A stretch of 64,000 nt of DNA from a virus (Duplodnaviria > Heunggongvirae > Uroviricota > Caudoviricetes): IMG/VR virus record IMGVR_UViG_3300025072_002801, one strand, 5' to 3'. Shown here in pieces: positions 6,076 through 34,782 of the stretch (its first letter is position 1; each line of letters starts with the position of its first letter). The notes under the pieces are model-generated. The model made no database searches, was not told the DNA's origin, and saw only the letters and a program-made list of their open reading frames with translations. A program made the translations under genes and the position numbers.

Positions 6076-6079
6076 TCTA

Positions 6080-6676: not shown

Positions 6677-6677
6677 A

Positions 6678-11383: not shown

Positions 11384-12382
11384 AGATTCCTAAAAGCGAC
11401 CTTAAAAAAATGCTCAAGATGATGGAAGGAATGCCTGGATGGGAATCTATTTATCCAAAGTCAATGCATGAGTCTTCTGATAAAAAGAAAAAAGATTTGT
11501 TGAAGTTGGCTAGGAAGGGAGGGAAAAGGACACATTATAAAACTGCTTTCTGCCCTTAGTGATTATGTGTGTAGGGTCAGTGATTGTTACGACGCATCTT
11601 TCGCTAAAGAGATTAAAAAAATCGCCCCACATTGGTTTGTGACTCAATCAGATCTTGCCAACAAAAAGAAGGAGGCGTTATTGAAGTTGGCTAGAAAAGG
11701 AGGAAAAAAACCTGCCCCAAAAACAGTTTTGTATAGCCCTCTCAATAATTACATAAGAAAATCAAACGCATGTTACGACGCATCTTTCGCTAAAGATATT
11801 AAAAAATTAGCTCCACATTGGTTTGAAAACTCCGCAGACAAAAAGAAAAAAGAGTTATTGAAGTTGGCTAGAAAAGGAAAAGAAAGACCAAAACACAAAA
11901 CTTCTTTGGGACTTTCTTTTTTCAATTATATAAAAGAGACAAATGATTGCTACGACGAATCCTTCACCAAAAAGATTAAAATAATCTCCCCACATTGGTT
12001 TGCAACTCCATCAGATGTTGCCAACAAAAAGAAGGAGGCGTTATTGAAGTTGGCTAAAAAAGGAGGAAAAAGACCGCATCAAAAAACTAATCCTTTGGGA
12101 TCTGCTATTTGCACCTATACAAGTATCAAATCAATTTCTTATGATCCAACCTTCACCAAACAAATTAAAGAATTAGCACCACATTGGTTTATGGGAAGAT
12201 CAGGTTTAGCTAATCAAAAGAAAAAAGATTTATTGAAGTTGGCAAAAAGTGGAGAAAAGCCACATTGGAAGTCCTTTTTGGGAAGACCCATGCATTCTTA
12301 TATGAGTAAGTCGCACGGCTGCTACGACCCAGCCTTCACTAAAAAAATTAAAAAAATCGCCCCACATTGGTTCAAAACATAG
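11380..12382 (+). pseudogene. Lys-rich tandem-repeat protein family member E, interrupted by a +1 frame change/stop near 11540-11566 (probably an ~11-14-nt deletion of the HPLG segment)
   Basis: Frame 1 reads MKIPKSDLKKMLKMMEGMPGW...RKGGKRTHYKTAFCP* (stop at 11557). The repeat continues in frame 2 as ...LLSALSDYVCRVSDCYDASFAKEIKKIAPHWF... to 12382 (5 modules in total). The consensus HPLG is missing at the junction. Confidence 0.5.
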
Positions 12383-17915: not shown

Positions 17916-18230
17916 ATGAGTGATTTAGACTTTATTTCAGGTAATTTTTTTGACGTTGATTTGCCTCGTGAGTGGAAGTATTTGGAAAAATACTTCCACT
18001 CAGACGTTCAAAGGGCGTTTTTATATTACTACTATACCTTTGACAACACTGAATTGATGGCAGACCATACTGGTCATCCTGTCAGTAAGCGTTGGTTGCG
18101 TAAGTTGAAGAGTAAATTAAGAAACATACGCAATGCACATAAAAAGGCTAAAAGTGAATTTGACATAGAAATGGTCGCTATTATTGAAAGCGGAAAATTT
18201 AGGGGATTTTATAAAACAGATGGCACATAG
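17916..18230 (+). CDS. Hypothetical protein
   Basis: 104-aa ORF; no domain. Confidence 0.45.
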   Translation: MSDLDFISGNFFDVDLPREWKYLEKYFHSDVQRAFLYYYYTFDNTELMADHTGHPVSKRWLRKLKSKLRNIRNAHKKAKSEFDIEMVAIIESGKFRGFYKTDGT

Positions 18231-19734: not shown

Positions 19735-19794
19735 AAAATATTGTTCACACTCAGTTAAATGAAAGTATTATTTAACACAAAGATGAAATAGGCT

Positions 19795-19989
19795 ATGAGA
19801 GAAGATTTACTGACGGAATATAAGGCTGTGCTGGGCATGATTGACGAAACTGAGGAAAAAGCCAAATTGCTTCTTGTTCGTTTAGATGATGGGGAAATCA
19901 TATCAGAAGAGGAAGTAGTTGACATAGAAGAGGACACTTCCACATATATGCAGAGATTATTCCAACTTGAGCTATCTTTGGGTGTTTAA
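19795..19989 (+). CDS. Hypothetical small acidic protein
   Basis: 64-aa ORF directly upstream of the IS element. Confidence 0.35.
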   Translation: MREDLLTEYKAVLGMIDETEEKAKLLLVRLDDGEIISEEEVVDIEEDTSTYMQRLFQLELSLGV

Positions 19990-19994
19990 TGATT

Positions 19995-21300
19995 GATATG
20001 CTAAACTAAAAGAAAGACGTGATGGGGTGAACTGCCCAACTAATCGTTGAACTTCATGCTTCATAGACAATTGGTTATTGCTAACTCTTACATCGTCTCC
20101 ACATGTGTAATCGACTGTCCCAGCCGATGTGTTTTAGTTTAATCCTTCATCAAGAATGTTTTTTGCTGCGTTTAAGTCACGATCTAATTCATGACCATTG
20201 GCGCAAGTCCATTTTCTATCTGAAAGCTTTAACTCTTGATTTATCCAACCACAAATATTACATGTTTTACTGCTTGGGAAAAATCTATTTATTTTAACTA
20301 CTTGCCTATCATTCCATTCCGCCTTGTAAGACAGATATTGAATAAATGTTCCCCAACTAGCATCAGAAATATGTTTTGCTAATTTGTGATTTTTAACCAT
20401 ACCTTTAACATTTAAGTCTTCGCAACAAATTATATCATAATCGCAAATTAATTTATTTGATATTTTGTGAAGATTGTCATGACGACAATTGGCAATTTTT
20501 TCATGAATTAAAGCAACTTTTTTCTTTTGCCTTAAATATAAATTACTGTCTTTTTGCTTTCTGCTTAAATGTTTTTGTGCCGTAGCTAATTCCTTTTCAT
20601 GCTTTTTTAAAAATCTATGATTCTTAAACCGCATATCATCTGATGTAATTATGAGTTCTTTTAGTCCTAGATCAATTCCAACTTTTTGATTGGTTTTCTC
20701 TTTAGGTTGATATTCTTCTTTGACTAAAATTGAAACATAATACTTGCCAGACTGTGTTTTTGAAATTGTAAAATTTCTTATCTCTCCATTAATTTCCCTG
20801 TGTTGCTTAACTTTGATTCCATTTTTAAATTTTGGAAAATAAATTTTACCGTTTTCCAATTTAATGGATTGTGGAACATGAAAACTATTTTTCTTTCTCT
20901 TTGATTTGTAATTTGGAAACTTTGAATTGCCTCTAAAGAAATTAACATAAGCAATTTCAAGATTCCTCAAAGCATGTTGAACAGATTGACTATTCACTTC
21001 TTTCAACCAAGTTAATTCTTTTTTGAGTTTCGTTAAAGATTTTGCTTGAGCAAAATAATTATCTGACTTTTTTTCTTTTTGATATTGTTCTTGTCTTTGT
21101 TTAAGAAAGTGATTGTACACAAATCTCACGCAACCAAAATGCTTGCCAAGAAGGTTTTTTTGGTCTTCGTTAGGGCGTAACCTAAATTTATATGCTCTTT
21201 GTATTTTCTTCACATAATATAATAGTATTGTTATTTACAAAAATAACGATAATTTTGTAAATTTTATAAAATACACAAACTTCACCTAAGAAAGCAGGAA
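19995..21300 (-). mobile_element. IS200/IS605-family TnpB-only insertion element (IS1341/ISC-like); the ends are approximate
   Basis: Single minus-strand tnpB gene, noticeably more AT-rich than its surroundings; non-coding flanks of about 140 bp (3' side, expected omega/reRNA region) and about 90 bp (5' side). Confidence 0.55.
20134..21213 (-). CDS. tnpB: TnpB (OrfB) RNA-guided nuclease-type transposase accessory protein
   Basis: N-terminal MKKIQRAYKFRLRPNEDQKNLL (OrfB_IS605 HTH); RuvC-like GIDLGLKELI; C-terminal CNICGWINQELKLSDRKWTCANGHELDRDLNAAKNI zinc finger / RuvC-III. Confidence 0.85.
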   Translation of the reverse strand: MKKIQRAYKFRLRPNEDQKNLLGKHFGCVRFVYNHFLKQRQEQYQKEKKSDNYFAQAKSLTKLKKELTWLKEVNSQSVQHALRNLEIAYVNFFRGNSKFPNYKSKRKKNSFHVPQSIKLENGKIYFPKFKNGIKVKQHREINGEIRNFTISKTQSGKYYVSILVKEEYQPKEKTNQKVGIDLGLKELIITSDDMRFKNHRFLKKHEKELATAQKHLSRKQKDSNLYLRQKKKVALIHEKIANCRHDNLHKISNKLICDYDIICCEDLNVKGMVKNHKLAKHISDASWGTFIQYLSYKAEWNDRQVVKINRFFPSSKTCNICGWINQELKLSDRKWTCANGHELDRDLNAAKNILDEGLN

Positions 21301-21325
21301 AAGGAAACTGATTGCTAAATAAAGT

Positions 21326-21874
21326 ATGGATTTAAATTTTAGAACATGGTTTGATAGTCAAGACAAGAATGAATCGAGTGCTTTTACTCGTTCGAGAAGA
21401 CAGTTTGCATTGGGCTTAGGTCCAGCACTTCCTGACGCTGCCCTTCATTCTCGTTCAACTTGTCCTCCAGGCGAACTTGAGGCAATCAAGAAGAACAAGA
21501 AAAAGAAGAAGAAGAAAGTAAAAAAAAAAGTAGTTAAAGAAGAGAACGACATTGATAAATGGCTATCAGCAGTTGATGATCTCAAGCGTGACATGGATGA
21601 ACTCGGCAAAGAAAAGCCTGAGGACGAAGAAGATATAGATCCAGAAGAAGACGAAGACGGTATAGAAGACGAAGACATTCCAGCCGACGATGCCGACGAT
21701 GCCGACGATGCTGATGATTCTGAGGAAGAAGAAGATGAAGATCACGAAGATAATCTTCTTACCCAAATAAAAGGTCAATCGCCAGAATCACCAGAAATGC
21801 CTGATGATCTAGATTCTAAATTAAAGAGTGCTTTCAAAACAGGCGATGAAAGCGAAGAAGACGATGAACTATAA
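21326..21874 (+). CDS. Hypothetical highly acidic protein with a Lys-run
   Basis: KKNKKKKKKKVKKKVVKEE followed by poly-D/E (DDADDADDADDSEEEEDEDHED); contains an A10 homopolymer (about 21518-21527) and a 12-bp x3 gacgatgccgac repeat. Confidence 0.5.
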   Translation: MDLNFRTWFDSQDKNESSAFTRSRRQFALGLGPALPDAALHSRSTCPPGELEAIKKNKKKKKKKVKKKVVKEENDIDKWLSAVDDLKRDMDELGKEKPEDEEDIDPEEDEDGIEDEDIPADDADDADDADDSEEEEDEDHEDNLLTQIKGQSPESPEMPDDLDSKLKSAFKTGDESEEDDEL

Positions 21875-22200
21875 TGTTGGATTATATTGAAAGAATCGTC
21901 TATTCATTCATGTGGCTTGTAATCGGAGCCGTTTCTGCAATTGATACTTATTGGTCAGTTGAATTAGGTGAATCTCTCTACGCTGACGAAATGAATCCAG
22001 TGGGTCGTTTAATTATGTCCTTGGATGGTGGCGGAGTGGCTTTATTTATGGGACTCAAATTTATGGGTACTGTCTTTGTTTTAGGCTACTTTGTTTACAT
22101 CTTCTCTAAATCGAAGAACTTTGCTTGGTCTACCATAGTTCCTATATTTCTTCTGCAACTTATGCTTCTTGTGTACCTGTATACGGGATTTAACTTCTAA
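21874..22200 (+). CDS. Small integral membrane protein (about 3 TM)
   Basis: Hydrophobic stretches VYSFMWLVIGAVSAI, VALFMGLKFMGTVFVLGYFVYIF, IVPIFLLQLMLLVYLY; ATGA overlap with the upstream gene. Confidence 0.5.
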   Translation: MLDYIERIVYSFMWLVIGAVSAIDTYWSVELGESLYADEMNPVGRLIMSLDGGGVALFMGLKFMGTVFVLGYFVYIFSKSKNFAWSTIVPIFLLQLMLLVYLYTGFNF

Positions 22201-22229
22201 GATAACTATATTATTGTTAGGAGTTAAAG

Positions 22230-22973
22230 ATGGATAAGCCAAGTTTCCCAGAGTTTTTAAAAAGTATTGAAGTAGAATCATTTTGGTCGATTTGCCAATT
22301 AAGTGGCAATTACAATGAAATTCCCAAACATTTTGAATTGTATGATTATCAAAAAGACTTGGTAAACGCATATGAAAATGAAGATTTTATAATTCTTAAG
22401 AAGTTTAGGCAAGGAGGGTTTACGACACTATCTGTAGTCTATTCATTGTATCTGTGTTATCTTGGCGAGAAGGATGAAAGTATTTTTCTTGCATTTAATA
22501 TGGATCGTGAAGCATGTTGTGTTGGCAACTTGATTGATAGGTTGATGCAAGGCATTCCAGAAGGAATTATGCCAAACCTTGTTAAACAAACAGATCATGA
22601 AAAGGTGTTCGATAACGGATGTTCAATCTTGTTGTTGTCTTCGCAGTCGGGTTCATTGCGTGGAAGGTCTTTTTCTAGGATTTTTATTGATGAGTCGGCG
22701 TTTCATAGAGATATGGATAATTTTTGGAAAGCAATATATCCATGTATTTCCGAAGGAGGAAAAGTTGTTGTGCAATCTACTCCAAGCGTCCATGATGGAG
22801 GAAGTTGGTTTAAAAAGACTTATTTAGACGCAATGAAATTGAAAAACAAATTTAGAATATTTCATACAAGTTACAAAGAGAATCCACAATACACTCCAGA
22901 ATTCATAGAAACGCTACGATCTAATCTGGGTGACAAAGGATTCAAGCTGGAAATAGAAGCAGAATTTATTTAA
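22230..22973 (+). CDS. Terminase large-subunit ATPase-domain-like protein (T4 gp17 N-terminal-domain-like), stand-alone 247 aa
   Basis: YDYQKDLV / KKFRQGGFTTL / NGCSILLLSSQSGSLRGRSFSRIFIDESAFH / WKAIYPCISEGGKVVVQSTPSVHDGGSWF align with T4 gp17 (YQRDML / SRQLGKTTVV / [30 protein letters not shown] / WLAIQPVISSGRRSKIIITTTPNG). The Walker-A lysine position is Phe, but a Lys lies five residues upstream (lambda gpA-like deviant KxxxxGxxT). Confidence 0.65.
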   Translation: MDKPSFPEFLKSIEVESFWSICQLSGNYNEIPKHFELYDYQKDLVNAYENEDFIILKKFRQGGFTTLSVVYSLYLCYLGEKDESIFLAFNMDREACCVGNLIDRLMQGIPEGIMPNLVKQTDHEKVFDNGCSILLLSSQSGSLRGRSFSRIFIDESAFHRDMDNFWKAIYPCISEGGKVVVQSTPSVHDGGSWFKKTYLDAMKLKNKFRIFHTSYKENPQYTPEFIETLRSNLGDKGFKLEIEAEFI

Positions 22974-23510
22974 ATGTTCCAAATAATCGGAGTAGGCGAA
23001 TTAGGTGGCAATAGAGACAAGTTCACTCGCCTGTACAATAAGAAAGTAGGAAAAGGAAACTGGTTTTGGGGCTTCTGTGCCAAGAAAAACTTGTATTCTT
23101 GGGATATAGGCATGCAATTGTATGAGGATGCCTACTGGAACTACTTTAGAGGTCATAAAGCAGCTTTGAAGGGCGTTGTGAGCTATTCTAACGTCTTTGT
23201 GGAAAGATCCAGTGATGTTGAGTCTGGATTGGACTATCGCACTCAGCAGGGCTATGAGGACCATTATGAGGACATCGCAGTAAGAAGATGCCTCAGGAGA
23301 ATGGGAGTGTGGTTCAAAGGCGAAAAAGACAGGTATTTGAACGTCAATAGCTCCCCATTAAGCTCTCAACTCGTTAAATTCCACCTTCCACACCTTTTGG
23401 ATGAAGGCGAAGATAATTGTGTAGCGTCATGGATATTAAACCATAGAGTTGTTATAATCGCTGACGAACCATCAGACCAACAACAATTAGCAGAGATTCT
23501 AATACGATGA
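22974..23510 (+). CDS. Hypothetical protein (possibly the second part of a split or degenerate terminase)
   Basis: Starts 1 nt after the terminase-ATPase stop; MFQIIGVGELGG loosely resembles an RNase-H-fold strand 1 but lacks the Asp; no confident nuclease motifs. Confidence 0.4.
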   Translation: MFQIIGVGELGGNRDKFTRLYNKKVGKGNWFWGFCAKKNLYSWDIGMQLYEDAYWNYFRGHKAALKGVVSYSNVFVERSSDVESGLDYRTQQGYEDHYEDIAVRRCLRRMGVWFKGEKDRYLNVNSSPLSSQLVKFHLPHLLDEGEDNCVASWILNHRVVIIADEPSDQQQLAEILIR

Positions 23511-24196
23511 GTGATGAAATTAAAAAGCCCAATAATTCGACAATAGTTCGAGTCGAAGTGACTAATGATCAATTGATCTCCGAACCAGGGGCAAATATAG
23601 AAGTTCACTCCTTTGATATAAAAACGACAGAAGTTCCAACTGTTGAAAGTAAAATTAAAACGCCCCCAAGGAAAGTTCCGACAAAAGATGATTTTTATAT
23701 GGGAATGGCATTTGCTTCATCCGAAGAATCTAAAGATCCAAATACGCAAGTAGGAGCATTTATTGTAGCTCCAGACAATGAACCTTTAGGATATGGATTT
23801 AATGGACCTCCAAGGAGTGTTGATGATGATGCAATGGATTGGTCTAGACCCGCTAAATATTTTAAAATAGTTCACGCTGAGATCAATGCTATTAGGCACT
23901 CCAGAAGAGAGCAATTAAAGGGATCAACGATTTATGTGACAGCAATGCCATGTAAGGATTGTATTCTCGATATAGCGAATTATGGCATAAGTAAGGTCGT
24001 TTACGCAGATATGAAAATAAACGACCCAAATTCTTCTTTGACTTTGAACAATGACGATAAGAAATGCAAAACATTAGAAATTGCCGAAGATACTGGTGTG
24101 GAAGTTGTTAAATACACTGGAAGCTTAAATTGGCTAGAGAAAGTTGTCTCTAGGGCTAAACAGCAGGGTCTTATACATGAAGAACAATTGGACTAA
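23507..24196 (+). CDS. dCMP deaminase (ComEB/CDA zinc-dependent deaminase family), copy 1
   Basis: HAEINAI and PCKDC zinc-ligand motifs with dCMP-deaminase-type spacing; about 75-aa N-terminal extension. Confidence 0.75.
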   Translation: MSDEIKKPNNSTIVRVEVTNDQLISEPGANIEVHSFDIKTTEVPTVESKIKTPPRKVPTKDDFYMGMAFASSEESKDPNTQVGAFIVAPDNEPLGYGFNGPPRSVDDDAMDWSRPAKYFKIVHAEINAIRHSRREQLKGSTIYVTAMPCKDCILDIANYGISKVVYADMKINDPNSSLTLNNDDKKCKTLEIAEDTGVEVVKYTGSLNWLEKVVSRAKQQGLIHEEQLD

Positions 24197-24557
24197 AAGT
24201 TTTGAAAACAGATGTTATGTTGAAGTTCCAAATCATGGAGTGGTAGATTTGGAGCCATTTGTGTGGGGCGCATTTTTTTATAAGCCAATTTTTGATGAAG
24301 AAGAACCTTTGAGAGTGATATTGGATTTGGATGTTCCTCGAAAAGACACTACAAGTTGGCAGTCCGATGACCCAGACATGATGGCAGTTTATGACACACT
24401 TCATTCGTCAATCAGTAACCGTGTCTCTGTTTGTAAGTTTAAGCCTCCGAAAAAGAGAGAGTCCATGGCATCTCTTAGAAAGATTGGCATGGGAGATTCC
24501 CCTTACAAGGGTCGTCATCAAATAAGATTAGTAAGGCTTGAATGGTGGTTAGTATGA
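24177..24557 (+). CDS. Hypothetical protein
   Basis: Start set at the internal MKNNWTKSF to minimise overlap; no domain. Confidence 0.4.
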   Translation: MKNNWTKSFENRCYVEVPNHGVVDLEPFVWGAFFYKPIFDEEEPLRVILDLDVPRKDTTSWQSDDPDMMAVYDTLHSSISNRVSVCKFKPPKKRESMASLRKIGMGDSPYKGRHQIRLVRLEWWLV

Positions 24558-25444: not shown

Positions 25445-27070
25445 ATGGCTACTTTATCTGAGTTCTTGATCGAGCGTTTGGAAAACGCAGGGATTAAGCA
25501 TGTGTTTGGTGTACCTGGAGATTATTGCTTAAAGTTTTACGAGCAATTATACAACAGTCCAATTGATGTCATTAACACAACTGATGAAGCACACGCAGGA
25601 TTTGCTGCCGACGCTTATGCTCGTTTGAATGGCGCTGGTTGTGTGTGCGTCACATATAATGTAGGAACTTTAAAATTAGCAAATGCTGTTGCTTGTGCTT
25701 ATGCTGAAAAATCCCCATTGGTAGTGATTTCAGGTTCGCCTGGAGTAGTAGAGCGAAATGATGACATGCTTCTCCATCACACGGTTAGAAGTTACGATTG
25801 TCAAAAAGACGTTTTTAAAAATATAACTTGTGCCAGTACGGTTTTAGATAATCCTGATACTGCTGGATATGAAATTGACCGTGTATTAGGTGAAATGAAG
25901 CATCACAAGCTTCCAGTATACATTGAATTGCCAAGAGATTTGGTAGAAAAGCCTATTACTTACGATGTTTATGGAATTGGCACTCCAAAAATGCAAGAAA
26001 CAGACCCAGAGAACTTGGAAGAGGCTTTGGAGGAGGTTGTTGGCTGGATTGATTCGGCTAAGAATCCAGTCATATTAGCTGGCGTTGAAGTAGCTAGATT
26101 TGGATTAGGAAAGCAACTTTTGAAGTTTGCCGAAAAGGGCAACATACCTATAGCCACAACATTGTTGAGTAAGTCGGTAATTAGCGAGACTCATCCATTG
26201 TTCGCTGGAGTTTATTCAGGCAGCGCAAGTCGTGAAGGGGTTAGTGATCTTGTGGAAGAATCGGATTGTTTAATTATGTTTGGGGTTTTGTTAACGGACT
26301 TAACTCTTAGCTTCAATCCAAAGAGATTTGCCAAGCGACAAACAGTTGCCGTTTCTGTTTCCGAACTTAAAGTTAAAAATCACACATATACAAATGTGTT
26401 GATGACAGATTTTTGCGAGTCTCTATTCAAAGCAGAAGTAAAAGAACGACCCATTGGAGATCTTCCAAAGAAAGCTGTTGTTGAGGATTTTGTTCCTAAG
26501 CCAGATACACCATTGACTACCAAGCGTTTGTTTGAAAAGATAAATGCCATCCTTGACAAGAATATGGCGATACTCGCTGATATTGGTGATAGCCTGTTTG
26601 GTGCATCAGATTTGGTTGTTCATGATTCTAATCAGTTTATATCACCAGCATTTTACACATCCATGGGAGCTTCAATTCCAGGTGCGTTGGGTGTTCAGTC
26701 GTTGAATCCAAAGACAAGACCAATCGTAATTGTTGGCGACGGAGCTTTTCAAATGGCTTGCACTGAGCTAGGAACAATTGTAAAGCGTGGATTGAATCCA
26801 ATTGTCATAGTTCTTAACAATGGCGGATATAATACGGAAAGGCTTATCTTAGATGGCGATTTTAATGACATTCCAGATTGGGAATATGAAAAAATTGTGG
26901 AAATGATCGGTGGAGGCAAAGGATTTAGGGTGGAGACGGAGGAATCTTTAGACTCTGCCATGGATATTGCTCTTGACTCTGACGAACTAACCGTGTTAAA
27001 TGTGTTAGTGGGAAGAGAAGTATCTCCCGCTTTAGAACGCATTACAAGTGGTTTATCTAAACGAATTTAA
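25445..27070 (+). CDS. Thiamine-diphosphate-dependent 2-keto-acid decarboxylase (pyruvate/indolepyruvate/phenylpyruvate decarboxylase family)
   Basis: N-terminal GVPGDY...AADAYAR (PYR domain), central domain, and C-terminal TPP-binding GDGAFQM...NNGGY motif; 541 aa as in PDC/IPDC. Confidence 0.75.
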   Translation: MATLSEFLIERLENAGIKHVFGVPGDYCLKFYEQLYNSPIDVINTTDEAHAGFAADAYARLNGAGCVCVTYNVGTLKLANAVACAYAEKSPLVVISGSPGVVERNDDMLLHHTVRSYDCQKDVFKNITCASTVLDNPDTAGYEIDRVLGEMKHHKLPVYIELPRDLVEKPITYDVYGIGTPKMQETDPENLEEALEEVVGWIDSAKNPVILAGVEVARFGLGKQLLKFAEKGNIPIATTLLSKSVISETHPLFAGVYSGSASREGVSDLVEESDCLIMFGVLLTDLTLSFNPKRFAKRQTVAVSVSELKVKNHTYTNVLMTDFCESLFKAEVKERPIGDLPKKAVVEDFVPKPDTPLTTKRLFEKINAILDKNMAILADIGDSLFGASDLVVHDSNQFISPAFYTSMGASIPGALGVQSLNPKTRPIVIVGDGAFQMACTELGTIVKRGLNPIVIVLNNGGYNTERLILDGDFNDIPDWEYEKIVEMIGGGKGFRVETEESLDSAMDIALDSDELTVLNVLVGREVSPALERITSGLSKRI

Positions 27071-27588
27071 TGTCAAAAATAAAAAAAGATGAAGAAAGTC
27101 GTGTAAACTATCAAATTCGCGCACACAGAGTTTTGGTCATACACGATGGTCAGAAACTCGGAGAAATGCATCCTAAAGATGCTATTGCAAAAGCACAGGA
27201 ATTGGAGTTAGATCTTGTTGAGGTTGCTCCAAATGCAAAGCCTCCTGTGTGTACCATCATGGATTATGGAAAGTGGAAGTACGATCAATCTAAAAAAGAT
27301 CGTTCTTCCCAATCTCACTCTTCAAAGTCTGAAGTTAAAACTGTGAGAATGAGGCAGAACACGGAAGACCATGATGTAGAAACTAAACTTAAGTTAATTA
27401 AAAAGTTTCTAATTAGTGGCAAGAAAGTCCAATTGCAAATAAGAAGCAAAGGACGAGAGCTTGCTCACAAGGATCGTGGTCTGGAAATTGCCAAGCATAT
27501 AATTAAAGAGCTTGAAGAAATTGGCAAGCCAGAAGCTACTCCGCGAATCAATGGCAACGAAGTTAGTTGCCGTATCAACCCTGTGTAA
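27070..27588 (+). CDS. infC: Translation initiation factor IF-3
   Basis: VNYQIRAHRVLVIHDGQKLGEMHPKDAIAKAQELELDLVEVAPNAKPPVCTIMDYGKWKYDQSKK and the C-terminal domain align residue-by-residue with E. coli IF3. Confidence 0.9.
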   Translation: MSKIKKDEESRVNYQIRAHRVLVIHDGQKLGEMHPKDAIAKAQELELDLVEVAPNAKPPVCTIMDYGKWKYDQSKKDRSSQSHSSKSEVKTVRMRQNTEDHDVETKLKLIKKFLISGKKVQLQIRSKGRELAHKDRGLEIAKHIIKELEEIGKPEATPRINGNEVSCRINPV

Positions 27589-27615
27589 GAAATATAAAGT
27601 TTCTAAAGGAATATT

Positions 27616-27882
27616 ATGGAATTAATGTTTGGACCAGGAGATGTCGTAATTCATTTGCTTACTAGCGAATGGCTTATGATACTCGCTCAAGTTACAGAAG
27701 AAGAGCCCAAAGGCTATACTGTTCGTAGGTCAAGTGATTATAGTATAATGAACTTGGCACATTTCGAAGTTGGAGTCCCAAAGGAAGAAAAAAATGACAG
27801 CAATCAAGATAACGGAAGAAGCACAGAAGGAAATCAAGAAGGTGTTCGAGGACCAGAAACTATCGAAGACGACGGTTCTTAG
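27616..27882 (+). CDS. Hypothetical small protein (DUF2158/YodC-like N-terminus?)
   Basis: GPGDVVIHLLTSEWLMILAQVTEEEPKGYTV resembles the small-protein YodC fold; the 3' 90 nt overlap the iscA-like gene in another frame, so the true end is uncertain. Confidence 0.35.
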   Translation: MELMFGPGDVVIHLLTSEWLMILAQVTEEEPKGYTVRRSSDYSIMNLAHFEVGVPKEEKNDSNQDNGRSTEGNQEGVRGPETIEDDGS

Positions 27883-28129
27883 AATTGCTGCCGAAGGCGG
27901 GGGATGCTCTGGCATCAGACATACGCTTAACTTTGAAGAAACAAAGGATAGTGAAATTGATGAAACTCAAAATCTTGTCGTAGAATTTGATGGATTCAAA
28001 TCAGTAATAGATAAAAAGTCTTTGCTGTTCATGGATGGAACAACTATTGATTATCTTCAAGATGCTGACAAAAGAGGGTTCGTGTTTGAAAATCCAAATG
28101 CAACAGGTTGCGGTGGTTGCGGGCAATGA
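27793..28129 (+). CDS. IscA/HesB-family A-type iron-sulfur cluster carrier
   Basis: MTAIKITEEAQKEIKKVF...LRIAAEGGGCSGIRHTLNFEE...FENPNATGCGGCGQ: the three conserved Cys (C-x(n)-CGCG) and the family spacing. Confidence 0.8.
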
Positions 28130-28407
28130 GCGAAGAAGCAAGATGTGCAGGCGCATGTTTGACGCATTGCTGCAAAATACATGGATGTAAATACAGAGAT
28201 CCTAATTGCCCAGTTGCAAACAACAAGCAAGAAGGAATAGCTGGATGCGAAGAATGCGGATTAGAGGCAGAGGGATATTATGGATGTTCTGACAAAGATG
28301 CATGGGACATGATATTAGAGATAGTTGCAGAAATCCATTCATTGCCTCCTGAATCATTTGCTCAGCGCAAGAAAGACCTTATAGCCATTGTAAGGAAGTA
28401 TATTTAA
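28126..28407 (+). CDS. Cys-rich small protein
   Basis: ATGA overlap with the iscA-like gene; 14 Cys in 93 aa (CAGACLTHCCKIHGCKYRDPNCP...GCEECG). Confidence 0.45.
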   Translation: MSEEARCAGACLTHCCKIHGCKYRDPNCPVANNKQEGIAGCEECGLEAEGYYGCSDKDAWDMILEIVAEIHSLPPESFAQRKKDLIAIVRKYI

Positions 28408-28691
28408 TTATTGAAGAAGTTCTGATAACCAGATTTTTTATCTCTATTTCCGGCACTCCATCCCGCTCTATACTCGTTGGCCGTTACCCAGTTTAACGGT
28501 GCCAGCCAATTTCCATCATAGCCATCGTGATAACCACGAATAAAAGATGAATCGTATACTTTGTCTCGATTCAGACTTTCTTTTGGCTTCTCTTCCACAA
28601 TTGGCTTAACAGGTACAGCCTTAGGTTCTGGGGTCTTTGCGCATCCTACGAACAAAGTGGACACGAATAATATTAAAAATAGTCTTGTCAT
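28404..28691 (-). CDS. Lipoprotein
   Basis: MTRLFLILFVSTLFVGCAKTPEP lipobox; convergent with the upstream plus-strand genes. Confidence 0.5.
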   Translation of the reverse strand: MTRLFLILFVSTLFVGCAKTPEPKAVPVKPIVEEKPKESLNRDKVYDSSFIRGYHDGYDGNWLAPLNWVTANEYRAGWSAGNRDKKSGYQNFFNN

Positions 28692-28734
28692 TGATACTCC
28701 TTTTGTTTAATATTTATGACTGGAGATAATTATT

Positions 28735-28920
28735 ATGAAAGAATTTGTTCTGGCTTTTCTGTCCATTTTTATAGCAATGGCTGTATGTCCTTTGTCATGG
28801 GGTATGTGGGGCGTATTTTTTATTTCAGCACCACTCTATTCAATGGCACTTCTTTGGCCTAAAAGGCACTTAATTATGAATTATATAAAAAAAATTAAAA
28901 CGCCCCTTGATGTGGGATAG
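28735..28920 (+). CDS. Small membrane protein
   Basis: Two hydrophobic helices in 61 aa. Confidence 0.35.
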   Translation: MKEFVLAFLSIFIAMAVCPLSWGMWGVFFISAPLYSMALLWPKRHLIMNYIKKIKTPLDVG

Positions 28921-28941
28921 GATTTTATTTAATATAAAGAT

Positions 28942-29148
28942 ATGAATAATACCCCAATGACACAGACGCCTGATGGACGATGGGTTCCTGCCCAACCATT
29001 GCCTTTTTGCAAAGATACACGTCCTTGGTATGTTAGAATTTATCATAAAATTTTAGTAATTTGTGGGCAGGATGAAGATGAGTTGATGGATTCTTGGTAT
29101 GTTCCAATGGAGCCTCCTATTGAAGATTTAAATAAGGTTAGAGGATAA
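28942..29148 (+). CDS. Hypothetical small protein
   Basis: 68-aa ORF preceding the MORN gene. Confidence 0.4.
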   Translation: MNNTPMTQTPDGRWVPAQPLPFCKDTRPWYVRIYHKILVICGQDEDELMDSWYVPMEPPIEDLNKVRG

Positions 29149-29150
29149 TT

Positions 29151-29705
29151 ATGAAAAATCATTGGGTTAATTTTGATAAAGTAGAAGACGTACTAAAAGT
29201 AGAAGACGTACTAAAAGTAGAAGACGTACTAAAAGTAGAAGACGGACTAATTGAGTACGAAGATGGAACAAAGATGTGGATTAAAGGTGGAGATTGCCAT
29301 CGCTTAGACGGTCCAGCAATTGAGTGGAGTGATGGAACAAAAGAATGGTGCGTAGCTGGGGGCTGGCATAGATTGGACGGTCCAGCACTTGAATTTTCAG
29401 ACGGGGAAAAATCTTGGTGGAAGAACGGTAGGCGTCATAGATTAGACGGTCCAGCGGTAATATGCTCAGATGGATCAGAGGTTTGGTACAGAGATGGAGT
29501 TAAAATAGATCCACCAAAAACAGGAAATAGGATGAATGACTTCCCTGGCGAGCACGACAACCATGTGCAACAACTTGCAAGTGGTGATGACGCTAGGTAT
29601 TCATCAGGAATTAAAGTAGAAATGCCTCCTATCATGAAGCCTCTTATGGAAGTTGAAGTTCCTCCAAAAGCGGTTGGCGAAGCAGAATGGGAGTTAGACG
29701 TATGA
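29151..29705 (+). CDS. MORN-repeat protein 1 with an N-terminal VEDVLK x4 heptad
   Basis: Repeats of the form W..NG..HR.DGPA.E..DG (GDCHRLDGPAIEWSDGTKEW, GGWHRLDGPALEFSDGEKSWW, GRRHRLDGPAVICSDGSEVWY). Confidence 0.7.
   Translation: MKNHWVNFDKVEDVLKVEDVLKVEDVLKVEDGLIEYEDGTKMWIKGGDCHRLDGPAIEWSDGTKEWCVAGGWHRLDGPALEFSDGEKSWWKNGRRHRLDGPAVICSDGSEVWYRDGVKIDPPKTGNRMNDFPGEHDNHVQQLASGDDARYSSGIKVEMPPIMKPLMEVEVPPKAVGEAEWELDV
29180..29251 (+). repeat. 18-bp perfect tandem repeat x3 plus one degenerate copy (gtagaagacgtactaaaa) encoding VEDVLK
   Basis: Read directly from the sequence. Confidence 0.9.
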
Positions 29706-30226
29706 GCAATGGTGACTTATATGCTGATTGGTTGAGACAAGCATACGAAGAAGCCACAAAGAGTCCTGATCCATCAACTCAAAATGGGGCTTTGTTGGTT
29801 TATGACACTTTTGCGAATGGCGTGCCAATAGACGACCCAGACATAGTTGCTGTTGATCATAATCGTTTTCCAGATGGTGTTGAATATTTGAATGAACGTT
29901 GGGAAAGACCATTAAAATACAAGATCATTGAACATGCAGAACGAAATGTGATATACAAAGCGGCATCCAAACGTACTGGCACAGGTGGATCAACAATGGT
30001 TTGTCCTTGGGCTGCATGTAGTGATTGTGCAAGAGCAATAATTCAATCTGGAGTTAAGAAGCTTGTGACTCACAAGCAAGCAGGTGATCGTTCTCCTCCA
30101 TTTTGGAAAGAAGAAATTAAAGTTGCCTTTGAAATGTTGAATGAGGCAAAAGTAGAGATTGTTTTGTTTGATGGAAAAGTAGATGGACCAGAGGTTCGTC
30201 ATAGTGGCGAGGTTTGGACTCCATGA
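29702..30226 (+). CDS. dCMP/cytidine deaminase-family protein, copy 2
   Basis: HAERNVIYKAA and PWAACSDCARAIIQSGVKKLV zinc-ligand motifs; ATGA overlap with the MORN gene. Confidence 0.7.
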   Translation: MSNGDLYADWLRQAYEEATKSPDPSTQNGALLVYDTFANGVPIDDPDIVAVDHNRFPDGVEYLNERWERPLKYKIIEHAERNVIYKAASKRTGTGGSTMVCPWAACSDCARAIIQSGVKKLVTHKQAGDRSPPFWKEEIKVAFEMLNEAKVEIVLFDGKVDGPEVRHSGEVWTP

Positions 30227-30265
30227 TGACATTTGATGACCTATCCGTTGGAGACAGGAGTGTAA

Positions 30266-31126
30266 ATGAGTTTTTTCAGATACCCAGGTGGTAAATCTAA
30301 ATTACGAAATCAAATTGCATCTAAGTTAAATTCTATAGGTGAATCTGATCTTGAATATAGAGAGCCTTTTTTTGGTGGAGGAAGCATTGGAATTAAATTG
30401 CTTCAAGAAACTGATATAAAAAAAATGTGGGTAAATGATTTTGATCCAGGTATTTTTTGCTTGTGGTCTACGCTCATAAACCGACCAGATCTTCTCAAAG
30501 ATAGGGTGAATGATTTTAAGCCATCTGTGGATCGTTTCTACGAATACAAAGAACATCTTACTGATAAGCCACCAGAACTAACATCAGATGATCTAGTCGC
30601 AGAGTACGGATTTAAAAAATTAGCCATCCATCAGATTTCATATTCGGGTTTAGGAACAAAGTCTGGTGGACCTTTAGGTGGAGCAAGTCAAAAGTCGGAT
30701 TATAAGGTTGACTGCCGATGGTCGCCTAAATACATCTGCAAGAAAATAGACAAGTTGAACAATAGATTTTCTGAATTGAATATTAGATGCACCAACTTAG
30801 ATTTCTCTGAGTTGATTTTAGACACTGAATGTGATGCAGTAATTTATTTAGATCCTCCATACTTTGTTAAGGGAAATGAGTTATATCAACACGGTTTCAA
30901 TGAGGAAGATCACAATCGTTTAGCCAAGGCATTAAAGGAAACAAACCATAAGTGGGTATTGTCCTACGATGACTGTGAAGAAATTCGTTCACTTTATGAA
31001 GGTTGGTCTAACATTGAAGTTATAGATGGAATAAACTATAGCATCACAGCGTTGAAAAATAAAGAAACTGGCGAGAGATCAAGTCGCACAAAAACAGAGT
31101 TGCTTATTATGTCGAGAAATAATTAA
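30266..31126 (+). CDS. N6-adenine DNA methyltransferase, Dam (D12 class) family
   Basis: Motif I FRYPGGKSKL and motif IV DPPY (IYLDPPYF) in Dam order. Confidence 0.8.
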   Translation: MSFFRYPGGKSKLRNQIASKLNSIGESDLEYREPFFGGGSIGIKLLQETDIKKMWVNDFDPGIFCLWSTLINRPDLLKDRVNDFKPSVDRFYEYKEHLTDKPPELTSDDLVAEYGFKKLAIHQISYSGLGTKSGGPLGGASQKSDYKVDCRWSPKYICKKIDKLNNRFSELNIRCTNLDFSELILDTECDAVIYLDPPYFVKGNELYQHGFNEEDHNRLAKALKETNHKWVLSYDDCEEIRSLYEGWSNIEVIDGINYSITALKNKETGERSSRTKTELLIMSRNN

Positions 31127-31621
31127 ATGAAAAATCATTGGGTTAATGTTGATAAAGTAGAATTTGAAGTTGACCGTGATGGAACTAAAAGTTGGAGTAA
31201 AAATGGAATGGTTCATCGAGAAGACGGACCAGCAGTTGAACATTTCAATGGAACAAAGTCTTGGATACAAAACGGAGAGTATCATCGTTTAGATGGACCA
31301 GCAATGGAATTTGCGAGCGGAAGAAAGGTTTGGCTGATGCATGGAAAGTATCATAACTTAGAAGGTCCAGCGATAATTACTCAAGATGGTCATAAAGAAT
31401 GGTGGCTAGACGGATCACGTCATCGAGGAAATGGACCAGCAATAGAACGAACGAATGGAAGAAATGAATGGTTTATAGATGGAAAGCGTCATAGGTTGGA
31501 TGGACCAGCAGTTGAACAGTTAGATGGTCATAAAGAATGGTGGGTAGAGGGCGTCTTGCAATGTGTTAAATATGCAAAAGGAAATGTCGTTCCTCTGGAT
31601 GAAATTTTAAAAAACAATTAA
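31127..31621 (+). CDS. MORN-repeat protein 2
   Basis: Six MORN-like units (HREDGPAVEHFNGTKSW, HRLDGPAMEFASGRKVW, HNLEGPAIITQDGHKEWW, HRGNGPAIERTNGRNEWF, HRLDGPAVEQLDGHKEWW). The first 12 codons are identical or near-identical to those of the MORN gene at 29151. Confidence 0.75.
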   Translation: MKNHWVNVDKVEFEVDRDGTKSWSKNGMVHREDGPAVEHFNGTKSWIQNGEYHRLDGPAMEFASGRKVWLMHGKYHNLEGPAIITQDGHKEWWLDGSRHRGNGPAIERTNGRNEWFIDGKRHRLDGPAVEQLDGHKEWWVEGVLQCVKYAKGNVVPLDEILKNN

Positions 31622-31633
31622 GGAATAAAATAA

Positions 31634-33103
31634 ATGTTTGTTGGAGTTAATTATGTCAATGGCGAGTTTGGTCAACACTCAGCCGATTTTGCAAGTATCA
31701 ACCCTGCCAATGAAAAGCAGTTGGGAATGTTTCCAATAACCAAAGGCAAGGGAGTTGATGAAGCCGTAGATGCTGCAAGGTGTGCATTTAATACATGGCG
31801 TGAACTTAGTCGAGTCAAACGTGGTGAGTATTTTGACAACTTGGCTCAGATCATGAAGAAGGAACATGATAGATTAGTTGAAACTATTACATTAGAAACT
31901 GGTAAGACTCTCAATGAAGCACATGCGGAAGTGACAGAAGCACGTCACATGGTCGAGTATGTGGTTGGCATGTCAAGAATGCCGTATGGAGAGGTAATCG
32001 CTAGTGAAGTCTCGGAGAAGGACGCTTACACGTTCCGTAAGCCCAAGGGAGTTGTTGCTATTGTTTCCCCTTGGAATTTTCCGATGGCTATAGGAGGCTT
32101 CTGGAACGCCGCCCCAGCTATCGCAGAGGGTAACTGTGTGGTGTGGAAGCCGAGTGAGTTGACTCCAATGTGCGCTCAGGTTGTAACTGAGCTTTATGAT
32201 CAAGCTGGCTTTCCACCAGGAGTTTTTAATTTAATTCATGGTATGGACAAGACAGGTGAGGAACTTGTTCATAACCAAGTGGACTGCATCTTGTTTACGG
32301 GATCGGCAGAGGTGGGCATGTTGATACGTCAGCATTGTGCGTCCACATGGCACAAAACATGCGCTTGCGAAATGGGTAGCAAGTCAGCCGTTGTCTTATT
32401 TGATGACGCGAATATGAATCTGGCGATAGATGCCTGTATCGCAAGCGCATTTAAATTAAGTGGTCAAAGATGTGTTTCTTCTGGAAGAATGATTGTCCAG
32501 AGAAGTCGTCTTGACGAGTTTACCAGTCTGTTCGTTGAGCGGGCTGGGACTTTGAAAGTTGGTGATCCAATGTTGGAAGATGGATTGTTTTATGGTCCAA
32601 TGATTAGTGCAGAGCAGATGCTTAGAGTCCAAGACTTTAATAGAACCGCATCTGGAGATCCTGATGCTGATGTTTTGATGAATGGAGTTCATGTTGGAGA
32701 CAAAGGTTATTGTCTGTCTCCTCATGTTTATGGGATGGAATGGGCGGATAAAATTACTTTAAAAAATGAAGTATTTGGTCCACATGTTGCCATCATTCCT
32801 TTCGACGATGTGGATGAAGGCATTGATATTTATAATGATACTAAATTTGCATTAGCGGTTGGAATCATCACAGATAATTTTAAAATTGCAAGACGTTGCC
32901 GCACTAGAATGGATTATGGAATGGGATACTGGAATGGGTCAAGCATTGGTGCAGAGAGCCATCTTCCATTTTCAGGTTTAAAGGCCAGCGGGAACTCCAG
33001 ACCTTCTGCTGCTCATTGTTATCGCTCTGTTACAGATGAGGTGTCTTGGACGGTAAATCATGAAGATGGTCTTACATTTTGCCAAGGAATGGATACAAAA
33101 TAA
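31634..33103 (+). CDS. NAD(P)-dependent aldehyde dehydrogenase
   Basis: ALDH signatures: SPWNFP, EMGSKSA (ELGGKSP-type Glu motif), FKLSGQRCVSSGR (catalytic Cys) and the C-terminal E..FGP motif. Confidence 0.85.
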   Translation: MFVGVNYVNGEFGQHSADFASINPANEKQLGMFPITKGKGVDEAVDAARCAFNTWRELSRVKRGEYFDNLAQIMKKEHDRLVETITLETGKTLNEAHAEVTEARHMVEYVVGMSRMPYGEVIASEVSEKDAYTFRKPKGVVAIVSPWNFPMAIGGFWNAAPAIAEGNCVVWKPSELTPMCAQVVTELYDQAGFPPGVFNLIHGMDKTGEELVHNQVDCILFTGSAEVGMLIRQHCASTWHKTCACEMGSKSAVVLFDDANMNLAIDACIASAFKLSGQRCVSSGRMIVQRSRLDEFTSLFVERAGTLKVGDPMLEDGLFYGPMISAEQMLRVQDFNRTASGDPDADVLMNGVHVGDKGYCLSPHVYGMEWADKITLKNEVFGPHVAIIPFDDVDEGIDIYNDTKFALAVGIITDNFKIARRCRTRMDYGMGYWNGSSIGAESHLPFSGLKASGNSRPSAAHCYRSVTDEVSWTVNHEDGLTFCQGMDTK

Positions 33104-33129
33104 TTGAAACACTACTCTTTTATAGCATG

Positions 33130-33369
33130 CTAAGAAAGAGAAGAAACAATAAAATCACTGGAAAGTATCTGGTGACAGACCCCGATGGGAAAGAATACAC
33201 TGTTTTAGAGTACACTTTTGTGATACAATCTAAAGCACGTAATATTGTTACCAAAGAGGTTGAAGGCGTTGTTAGCTACAAGACATCTGATGGAAAAGAG
33301 GTTCAAGTGGAAGATGAACAATTATTTCTGGATGGTGTTAAATTAGAAATTCAAGAGATAATCCTTTAG
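33130..33369 (+). CDS. Hypothetical small protein
   Basis: Tracked ORF 33079-33369 overlaps the ALDH stop; an internal Met was chosen. Confidence 0.35.
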   Translation, partial: LRKRRNNKITGKYLVTDPDGKEYTVLEYTFVIQSKARNIVTKEVEGVVSYKTSDGKEVQVEDEQLFLDGVKLEIQEIIL

Positions 33370-33379
33370 GAGATAAAGA

Positions 33380-33808
33380 ATGAGTCAAGTCCCAGATGTT
33401 GTAGACTTTAAGCCAGTTGGATCAAATATTTTGATCGAATTAGTCAATAGTGAAGAGTTGTTGCCAGCAAGCGTCCTTGAAATCGTAGGTGAAACTGCGA
33501 ATAAAATGGCAGATGATTTTGGTGCTCCACAAGCATATGTTTTGGCAGTAGGACCTGCTGCAAAGCCAGAAGATTGGGGATTTAGTGTTGGCGACCGTGT
33601 TGCCATTAGTGCAAAAATGACACCATTGCCACCAGTTGCTTTGTCAACAGATTCCCCAGAACTTTTGGACGTTCATGGCAAGCCAAGACGTGCAAGAGGT
33701 ATTTTGGATAGCCCTGCTGGAATTAAGGCTGTATTGGTCGAAGCAGATGCAAGTGCAAATGCAGAGACGACAGAGAAGTGCTGTGGTGGAGGCTCTTGTA
33801 AGGTTTAA
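33380..33808 (+). CDS. Possible co-chaperonin (GroES/gp31-like) protein
   Basis: FKPVGSNILIELV and AYVLAVGPAA...VGDRVAIS loosely parallel the GroES pattern IRPLHDRVIVKR / GEVLAVGNG...VGDIVIF; sits immediately upstream of dnaJ; longer than GroES and Cys-rich at the C-terminus. Confidence 0.4.
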   Translation: MSQVPDVVDFKPVGSNILIELVNSEELLPASVLEIVGETANKMADDFGAPQAYVLAVGPAAKPEDWGFSVGDRVAISAKMTPLPPVALSTDSPELLDVHGKPRRARGILDSPAGIKAVLVEADASANAETTEKCCGGGSCKV

Positions 33809-34782
33809 TGGATGATCTTTATTCTATATTAGGTGTCTCTGAAGACGCTACTCAGGATGAGATCAGTGCCGAGTACAAGAAACTAGCAATCAAATTCCAC
33901 CCTGATGCTAGTTCTGAAGAAGGTGCATCCGAGAAATTTAAGCAAATATCAACTGCCTACGAGACGCTAGGAGATCCGGCGAAACGTAGGCAGTATGATA
34001 TGCGCGGTCAAGGTGGCTTTAATATAAATATAAACGATTTCTTTGGAAGAGTTCGTAAAGCCGCGAACTCGCAGGCAAAGATTGAAGTTTCATTAGAAGA
34101 AGCCAAAACTGGTTGTACGAAGATACTAAAAATTAAACGCCCAATGAAGTGTGTTTTATGTAGTGGTACTGGTGCATCGAAGACTGAAAAGTGCGGAAAT
34201 TGCCGTGGATCTGGCGTAGTGAATATGTCTGTTGATGGTCCGTTTAATGTCCAGTCTGCTTGTAATGTTTGTGGTGGTCGTGGAATGAAGATTTTAGAAA
34301 GTTGCAATGATTGCAATAACGGTATGGTTTCTGGTGAATCAGAAGAGGTTAGAGTCGAGATTCCTGCTGGCATAATGTCTGGGATGGCATTGAGGTTCCC
34401 AGGAAAGGGATCAGAGGGCGTTGAAGACCAGATGCCAGGGGATCTTATAGTTCATATAAACGTCAAGAAGCATGATGTTTTTGATGTTAAGGGCGTTAAT
34501 TTAATTTATAGAACCCCTATTTCTTACGCAAAGTTGGTAATGGGTTGTAAATTAGATGTTCCAACTTTAGATGGCGAGGTAATGGAAGTCACTATACCGC
34601 CAGGAACATTGAGTGGTTCTAATTTTAAATTAAGAGGTTTGGGCATGCCTGATCTGAACTATGATGGGTCAGGAGATCTGTATGCTGTGATAGATGTTGA
34701 GATACCGAAAGATTTGAGTGAAGAACATTTGAAAATAATAGAACAATTAGTTGAGATTGAAAATGAAAAAAATAAACAATAG
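33808..34782 (+). CDS. dnaJ: DnaJ-like chaperone (J domain plus four CxxCxGxG zinc-finger repeats plus C-terminal substrate-binding domains)
   Basis: DLYSILGVSEDATQDEISAEYKKLAIKFHPD (HPD motif); CVLCSGTG, CGNCRGSG, CNVCGGRG, CNDCNNG repeats. Confidence 0.8.
   Translation: MDDLYSILGVSEDATQDEISAEYKKLAIKFHPDASSEEGASEKFKQISTAYETLGDPAKRRQYDMRGQGGFNININDFFGRVRKAANSQAKIEVSLEEAKTGCTKILKIKRPMKCVLCSGTGASKTEKCGNCRGSGVVNMSVDGPFNVQSACNVCGGRGMKILESCNDCNNGMVSGESEEVRVEIPAGIMSGMALRFPGKGSEGVEDQMPGDLIVHINVKKHDVFDVKGVNLIYRTPISYAKLVMGCKLDVPTLDGEVMEVTIPPGTLSGSNFKLRGLGMPDLNYDGSGDLYAVIDVEIPKDLSEEHLKIIEQLVEIENEKNKQ

Follow-up and report, generated by a model that had tools for sequence, protein, structure and literature searches.

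In T4-type phages, promoter-early stem-loop (PeSL) cassettes mediate the shuffling of modules and the formation of mini-circles (Arbiol et al. 2010, PMC2839356; Comeau et al. 2014, PMC4122927). Here we describe a locus in which two genes for repeat proteins, MORN-like 1 and MORN-like 2, share a 36-nt 5′ leader and bracket a deaminase gene and a DNA methyltransferase gene; it occupies positions 29151–31621 of a 64,000-nt window, the whole stretch of DNA analysed, from a virus that we read as an uncultured large marine phage (IMG/VR record IMGVR_UViG_3300025072_002801, Caudoviricetes; all coordinates are those of the whole stretch). A capsid-targeting-sequence (CTS) leader is reportedly common to the polymorphic internal-protein genes of T-even phages. 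The locus is like a PeSL cassette in that short direct repeats surround non-essential genes in a hyperplastic region, where recombination would excise or insert the bracketed genes. However, PeSLs are intergenic, occur in many copies and combine a strong promoter with a terminator stem-loop, whereas the repeat described here is the coding 5′ end of two paralogs, exists in two copies, and has neither a promoter or terminator signal above chance nor a significant stem-loop; and, unlike PeSLs, it bounds no presence/absence polymorphism or circles in 18 assembled population contigs. The T-even leader, as it is said to be, invites comparison as an N-terminal stretch of ~10–12 residues on otherwise divergent genes in a variable locus, but the leader described here is found on two genes only, and nothing seen here supports capsid targeting, cleavage by a prohead protease or exchange at it.

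The explanation that we hold with moderate confidence is a long-resident, ameliorated accessory island in which two independent enzymes lie between old paralogs with homogenized 5′ ends. The two outer genes would be old members of a widespread family of MORN-like β-hairpin repeat proteins, and their first 12 codons would recently have been made identical, most likely by a short gene-conversion tract or, alternatively, by duplication of the leader at the time the genes between them were acquired. The deaminase and the methyltransferase would be independent ‘moron’-type accessory genes. The former (acting on dCMP, possibly on both dCMP and dCTP) would feed dUMP into dTMP synthesis for a genome of 61% A+T, and the latter would methylate phage DNA, probably to escape a host restriction system. 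If this ordinary reading is true, the locus is one more variable island in which a large phage has gathered accessory genes, these being an orphan methyltransferase, repeat proteins and a paralog from nucleotide metabolism.

A shared leader on two old paralogs

The two MORN-like genes agree at 35 of their first 36 nucleotides (Table 1). At up to three mismatches, the 64 kb of the window contain these two sites only, with none in 100 dinucleotide-preserving shuffles, and the best agreement at any other 36-nt window of the two genes is 28/36. The leader encodes MKNHWVN(F/V)DKVE, identical at 11 of 12 residues, and all nine of its degenerate codons are the same in both genes, versus 27 of 48 at conserved residues elsewhere in the paralogs (P ~0.006 from the rate elsewhere, ~0.002 from the codon usage of the window). 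Since nine of nine degenerate codons match, constraint at the protein level alone is insufficient to produce this identity. The leader occurs in none of the 120 best homologs of the MORN-like family and so is not a family-wide feature, and an exact search of IMG/VR with the 21-nt start of the repeat returned 0 matches. We conclude that the identity lies at the nucleotide level, is private to this genome and is relatively recent, which would argue for gene conversion over a short tract or for copying of the leader, not for family-wide protein constraint.

The original prediction had noticed the near-identical 5′ ends, and it was also right about the coordinates of all four open reading frames (ORFs), the paralogy of the outer genes (BLASTP 45% identity, E 3e-33) and the presence of an earlier deaminase gene in the window. 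Two wider searches with the leader gave matches that we rejected as chance. The 21-nt start had one match in a metagenome collection, in an unrelated ORF with no other similarity (L050); this collection evidently lacks the Joint Genome Institute (JGI) contigs that carry the phage. The back-translated leader, ATGAARAAYCAYTGGGTNAAY, matched two giant-virus metagenome-assembled genomes in IMG/VR, both out of frame. Upstream of the ATG, the two copies have little in common beyond an AT-rich ATAATT.

Table 1 Features of the locus, with positions in the 64,000-nt window
Feature	Position	Strand	Description
Accessory island	28130-31633	+	3.5 kb, eight ORFs; between HesB-like and aldehyde dehydrogenase genes
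Small ORF up68	28942-29148	+	68 aa; 2-nt gap to MORN-like 1
MORN-like 1	29151-29705	+	184 aa; leader, KVEDVL tandem repeat, 23-residue units, tail
Direct repeat copy 1	29151-29186	+	ATGAAAAATCATTGGGTTAATTTTGATAAAGTAGAA; first 12 codons (MKNHWVNFDKVE) of MORN-like 1
Tandem repeat	29178-29250	+	In-frame 18-nt unit AAAGTAGAAGACGTACTA, 4.1 copies, hexapeptide KVEDVL; Tandem Repeats Finder (TRF) score 139, 98% matches
dCMP-deaminase-family zinc deaminase	29702-30226	+	174 aa; PF00383, phrog_174; second deaminase of the window
Orphan D12-class (alpha-group) DNA amino-methyltransferase	30266-31126	+	286 aa; PF02086, phrog_56
MORN-like 2	31127-31621	+	164 aa; leader, five full 23-residue units, C-terminal cap
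Direct repeat copy 2	31127-31162	+	As copy 1 but for a G at position 22; codons 1–12 (MKNHWVNVDKVE) of MORN-like 2

Beyond the leader, the two genes have drifted far apart, to 55–70% identity in DNA. Their 69-nt units are just 45–70% identical, both within and between the genes, and the paralogs are therefore old, with repeat bodies diverged to saturation. The repeat has a period of 23 aa (69 nt) and the consensus W..nG..HR.DGPA.E..dG.k; MORN-like 1 carries three full units (‘...W..nG..HRlDGPA.E’) and a partial fourth, followed by a 65-residue non-repeat tail. The KVEDVL tandem repeat of MORN-like 1, which the first reading of the sequence had overlooked, begins within the last 9 nt of the shared leader. 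The window contains no extra MORN-like copies and no frameshifted remnants of them in the MORN-like 1 tail.

The name MORN, given to both genes in the original prediction, holds for the fold and not for the sequence family. Neither protein matches Pfam MORN (PF02493) or MORN_2 (PF07661) even at E <= 10, and no Pfam threshold is reached, the only sub-threshold match being a piece of DUF6745 (19 bits versus a cut-off of 27). Searches of phage and bacterial data gave 1,887 homologs of MORN-like 2, the best at ~55–62% identity, a few of which carry the bacterial ‘MORN variant / YwqK-like’ repeats (PF07661) or the name ‘YwqK antitoxin’. An AlphaFold2 model of MORN-like 2, built on a 38-sequence alignment (mean predicted local distance difference test (pLDDT) 92.5), consists of β-hairpin repeats and is made up almost wholly of short β-strands. 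In a Foldseek search of the PDB, its best matches were MORN1 of T. brucei, T. gondii and P. falciparum (E 7e-6 to 6e-4; the top match at E 7e-6 with probability 1.0), followed by radial-spoke MORN proteins, junctophilin and MORN4, at TM-scores of just 0.3–0.48. The model shares with known MORN proteins (TbMORN1 6T68, TgMORN1 6T69, junctophilin, radial-spoke RSP1/10) the 23-residue period and an elongated β-hairpin fold, while the MORN consensus YxGxW..GK.HG.G differs from that of the phage paralogs. On this modelling, ‘MORN-like’ is correct at the fold level, and a widespread HRxDGPA repeat family, unclassified by Pfam, has a MORN-like fold.

Selection on the leader itself is a reading that we consider improbable. 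The 12 residues (36 nt) would then be maintained as an N-terminal targeting or processing tag, or as a matched translation-initiation region, and three features agree with this: the leader is identical at 11 of 12 residues against 45% overall, residues 1–10 of the AlphaFold2 model are not part of the repeat fold and are less confidently placed (pLDDT 69 for the first block), and both MORN-like genes open right at the stop codon of the preceding gene, with the ATG of MORN-like 2 abutting the methyltransferase TAA (TAAATG). Against it, selection on the protein fails to account for the nine of nine identical synonymous positions, and the leader was found in no other gene of the window or the databases. 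Folding z-scores of −0.04 and −0.76 for the repeat region, and of +0.86, led us to reject an RNA structure in the repeat or next to it, and we likewise rejected a promoter or terminator there, since promoter- and terminator-like counts equal the shuffled expectation.

Likeness of 5′ ends is also seen in another part of the window. Small paralogous genes form tandem arrays at 58377–60100 with conserved 5′ ends and upstream regions (58602–58688 versus 58934–59020, 83%; 59641–59718 versus 59952–60029, 87%). With these arrays, 5′-end likeness after local duplication recurs, and local duplication with 5′-end similarity is a habit of this phage genome.

The accessory island and its variation

The locus lies in a 3.5-kb island bounded by a conserved HesB/Fe-S-biogenesis-like gene (27770–28129) and an aldehyde dehydrogenase (ALDH) gene (31634–33103); its left edge is fuzzy and overlaps an ORF at 28108–28407. 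The island holds four small ORFs in addition to the two MORN-like genes, the deaminase and the methyltransferase. One of them, up68, lies immediately upstream of MORN-like 1 and has no Pfam or PHROG match. The deaminase ATG overlaps the MORN-like 1 TGA as ATGA, and 39 nt separate the deaminase and methyltransferase genes. Given their common strand and tight or overlapping junctions, the genes from 28942 through ALDH are probably co-transcribed.

Two IMG/VR contigs, L045 (188 kb) and L046 (262 kb), were the only syntenic relatives found; they follow the window over 16–18 genes at ~25–56% protein identity. In both, the HesB homolog (9649–9957 and 9650–9961, respectively) is followed directly by the ALDH homolog (from ~10001), and the proteins encoded at 28130–31633, including both MORN-like proteins, have no match at the syntenic position. 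Because the relatives lack the whole interval, the variable unit at that depth is the 3.5-kb island and not the two genes between the repeats. The original prediction had looked to related genomes for the cassette, present or absent, beside a single MORN gene; these two lack both MORN-like genes. IMG/VR searches via MORN-like 2, IF3 and ALDH returned distant relatives only (L026, L045–L049). A recent foreign origin of the cargo genes was rejected, as their G+C, third-position G+C (GC3) and codon-usage z-scores fall within the range of the genome, and the island as a whole is indistinguishable from the rest of the window in G+C, GC3 and codon usage.

Around the island, 25445–28129 and 31634–34782 hold cellular-type genes conserved with L045 and L046: those for a thiamine-pyrophosphate-dependent decarboxylase-like protein, IF3, the HesB/Fe-S biogenesis protein, ALDH and DnaJ, together with a 142-aa protein without a Pfam match that is labelled putatively GroES-like from its position. 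Further upstream, seven genes at 18184–24557 have no counterpart at that position in L045 or L046. They comprise a LAGLIDADG endonuclease ORF (18184–19734), a minus-strand TnpB/IS605 OrfB-like gene (20134–21213), a 247-aa ORF in which a T4-type large terminase is represented by its N-terminal domain alone (22230–22973), the first dCMP-deaminase gene (23507–24196) and three unknowns. Since this segment and the island are both absent from L045 and L046, both deaminase genes of the window sit in lineage-specific insertions.

Variation within the population was assessed on 18 near-identical metagenome contigs (L027–L044) from roughly seven to ten samples, as assemblies and not as raw reads. These contigs are 99.6–100% identical to the window and collinear with it. 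All junctions visible in them run from up68 into MORN-like 1 or from the methyltransferase into MORN-like 2, and up68, called as a gene, is followed by MORN-like 1 in 8/8 contigs in which the downstream gene is visible. Junctions from up68 into the MORN-like 2 body (a deletion) or from the methyltransferase into the MORN-like 1 body (a circle or duplication) were found in none of the ~18 contigs. As far as these assemblies show, the arrangement is fixed, without repeat-mediated variation, an outcome that the original prediction had itself named as counting against it.

The gain and loss of a cassette through the repeats, as first proposed, therefore finds no support in either the collinear population contigs, with no recombinant junction, or the relatives that lack the whole island. 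Its mechanistic form would be a Campbell-type single crossover at the 36-nt leader, by which the MORN-like 1 body, deaminase and methyltransferase enter and leave via a circle. The order repeat–cargo–repeat is the exact product of such a crossover at 36-nt homology, the locus lies within a variable island, and short-repeat shuffling with mini-circles is documented in T4-type phages (PMC2839356, PMC4122927). Yet besides the missing recombinants, the distant relatives lack both repeat copies, the codon usage of the cargo is native, the repeat is present in only two copies in 64 kb, and elsewhere the leader gave only chance matches (exact and back-translated searches of IMG/VR, one metagenome scan); we consider a mobile cassette unlikely. 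Were the leader nevertheless an active exchange site, the locus would add to what is known of how phages shuffle their genes; otherwise the locus is fairly ordinary.

Two differences were seen among the population contigs. L034, L036 and L040 are shorter by 36 nt at 29178–29250, that is, by two KVEDVL units (2 versus 4 copies). All three are ENA re-assemblies, and L034 and L036 closely mirror the four-copy JGI contigs L033 and L035, with the same right ends and, for L035 and L036, the same left end; the copy-number difference could be a real polymorphism or an assembly collapse. In L038 (JGI 3300025114), 160 nt of unrelated sequence (L038 1–160, versus window 28714–28873) are joined at 28874. 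The reading frame runs on unbroken to the same C-terminus (...MNYIKKIKTPLDVG), and the variant N-terminus, ‘MAEIFIAGNVPSSKNGKRW’, looks RusA-like. The contig represents either strain variation in the island or a chimera made in assembly. Contigs of at least four independent assemblies end at 30203–30212 or start at 30260–30263 or 30332, around the deaminase–methyltransferase spacer and the 5′ end of the methyltransferase gene.

Two enzymes whose pairing is not conserved

The deaminase is assigned to its family by Pfam (PF00383, 45.7 bits versus a cut-off of 25, E 6e-12) and PHROG (phrog_174 ‘dCMP deaminase’, 1e-22). Its closest solved relative is 7fh4 (2.5e-18), the bifunctional dCMP/dCTP deaminase of chlorovirus PBCV-1 (bioRxiv 10.1101/2024.12.05.627091), ahead of T4 Cd (1vq2, 3.5e-9), and its ‘EHAERN’ (HAE) and ‘ACSDC’ (CxxC) motifs align with the zinc and catalytic motifs of both. 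With the viral dCMP deaminases (PBCV-1 7FH4, cyanophage S-TIM5 4P9C, T4 Cd 1VQ2) it shares the zinc-deaminase fold, the HAE/CxxC motifs and small size, but its first Cys motif reads A-C-S-D-C instead of P-C-x-x-C. It further differs from them in being the second, divergent copy in its genome (33% identical to the 229-aa deaminase at 23507–24196) and in having many Patescibacteria proteins among its closest homologs, those at 57–65% identity being named dCMP deaminase. Judged by its closest relatives and by the ThyX and deoxynucleoside monophosphate (dNMP) kinase genes near them, its substrate is probably dCMP and possibly dCTP.

The methyltransferase matches the full PF02086 profile (87.7 bits versus a cut-off of 22, 1.4e-24) and phrog_56 (8e-48), with ‘FFGGGS’ as the S-adenosylmethionine-binding FxGxG motif and ‘LDPPYF’ as the catalytic DPPY motif. 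The original label, Dam family, is correct as to the D12 class, whereas the NCBIfam model TIGR00571 ‘dam’ is not reached (75.7 bits, cut-off 114.85). T4 Dam, cyanophage ‘Dam’ and M.CbeI belong to the same PF02086 family and have the same alpha-group motif order and DPPY motif; unlike Dam, the phage enzyme falls below the ‘dam’ cut-off and is nearer to M.CbeI. Among solved structures, 7m6b (M.CbeI, 4.7e-20) is closest, with the GATC enzyme DpnM (2dpm) at 5e-4, and identity to methyltransferases of cultured phages is only 27–33%. M.CbeI, from Caldicellulosiruptor bescii, is an alpha-class N4-cytosine methyltransferase (PMC8616854). As M.CbeI is much closer than DpnM, GATC cannot simply be taken as the target, nor can adenine, and with an N4-cytosine enzyme as the nearest relative of solved structure, members of this clade that are annotated ‘Dam’ call for caution. 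No restriction-enzyme domain was seen by Pfam in the genes adjacent to the methyltransferase, for which an anti-restriction role on its own would be the sensible default.

Palindromes are strongly avoided in the window: 28 of the 64 palindromic hexamers are absent, versus 0.8% of non-palindromic hexamers, and those absent include GATATC (~13–21 expected), ATCGAT, AGTACT and GGATCC. Relative to Markov expectation, GGCC is the most avoided tetramer (0.18), with CCGG at 0.27 and CGCG at 0.32. GATC is not avoided, with 228 sites at an observed/expected ratio of 0.83, a value similar to that of most other tetramer palindromes, a count that gives site frequency only, as the methylation state is not readable from sequence. 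The avoidance suggests that the main anti-restriction strategy is loss of sites and not wholesale base modification, in which case the methyltransferase would cover one remaining motif. An orphan methyltransferase in a genome with unusually strong palindrome avoidance makes a good case for asking which sites the enzyme protects.

It had further been proposed that the deaminase and the methyltransferase form a DNA-modification module. Homologs of the methyltransferase (up to 66% identity) at 25 viral loci, several on contigs of 135–543 kb, have no deaminase or MORN-like neighbour, and at none of the nine loci with deaminase homologs (L051–L055, L058–L061, of which L061 is bacterial) does a D12 methyltransferase or MORN-like gene lie nearby. 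One deaminase homolog has a ThyX-like gene directly upstream (L054), and another a dNMP-kinase-like gene upstream and ThyX 3 kb downstream (L058). The pairing is not conserved, and the usual company of the deaminase, to go by these gene neighbourhoods, is dTMP synthesis.

A single pathway in which both enzymes make or edit a modified base against restriction thus seems very unlikely to us, for all that the genes are adjacent in one probable operon. D12 amino-methyltransferases make N6-methyladenine or N4-methylcytosine on DNA, and to our knowledge neither base is a substrate or product of dCMP deaminase. The 28 missing palindromic hexamers would also fit largely unmodified DNA that relies on site avoidance. 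In favour of such coupling, phage contigs whose cytosines are modified show an enrichment of dCMP-deaminase-family genes: a New England Biolabs study links these genes to cytosine hypermodification, mainly with a nearby thymidylate-synthase homolog, which lies within 3 kb of the phage deaminase on 70% of modified versus 6% of unmodified contigs (bioRxiv 10.1101/2024.12.05.627091). This hallmark of modification-linked phage dC deaminases (mSCD type) is seen for neither deaminase of the window, with no Thymidylat_synt or Thy1 match within 3 kb of 29702–30226 or 23507–24196 among the Pfam-scanned or precomputed-annotated ORFs, some small ORFs lying outside this set. Mobility by the repeat and joint action of the enzymes are conceivable but unsupported.

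Several points weigh against two independent enzymes between homogenized paralogs. A conversion tract that runs from about the start codon to codon 12 with little flanking homology is mechanistically awkward, there are no intermediate relatives by which to date it, and the codon-identity statistic is based on just nine codons. The assembly breaks at 30203–30332 could possibly mark hidden population variation or a coverage gap. The predicted substrates of both enzymes are taken from their relatives; the closest solved relative of the methyltransferase is an N4-cytosine enzyme, and phage members of the dCMP-deaminase family can prefer 5-methyl- or 5-hydroxymethyl-dC (bioRxiv 10.1101/2024.12.05.627091).

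A distinctly speculative thought, and a very unlikely one, is that MKNHWVN(F/V)DKVE is at once a modular ‘address tag’ and a recombination site for tagged MORN-like cargo genes, which would give the MORN-like proteins a common fate, such as virion packaging or delivery to a host structure, and would let gene sets swap between tagged genes through identity at the DNA level. An uncultured marine jumbo phage would then possess, within coding sequence, a counterpart of the shuffling mediated by PeSLs or the CTS.

Wider features of the phage genome

Nearly all genes of the window are on the plus strand, at a G+C content of ~39%, and five tRNA genes lie at 61–63 kb. Pfam matches include the T4-type terminase N-terminal domain, PhoH, a sigma-70-like factor, RNA ligase, the LAGLIDADG endonuclease, the minus-strand TnpB-like gene, IF3, DnaJ and SPFH proteins. 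A nucleotide search of 50,697 cultured-phage records gave no match to the locus at the DNA level. Exact copies of window proteins were found on a 0.2–1 Mb contig and on many short marine metagenome contigs.

The window is rich in paralog arrays and internal repeats. At 4940–12380, at least 24 copies of a ~174–198-nt unit (~58–66 aa) extend over consecutive ORFs flanking a helicase gene, with the motif ‘...KKKEELLKLARKGGKRP...HPLG...Y...YD..F.KEIKKLAPHWF’ and only weak Pfam matches (Ish1, ribosomal S13/S15 N-terminal). A 29-nt sigma-70-like promoter motif, TTTACAATTnnCCTGATTCAAAGTATAAT, has five copies, at 2503, 4820, 4890, 55925 and 61409, none near the locus. At 5–1519, a 504-aa protein combines five DUF4379 treble-clef zinc-finger repeats (216-nt period) with a weak DnaJ match, and a homolog of this protein is encoded near the methyltransferase homolog of one viral contig (L014).

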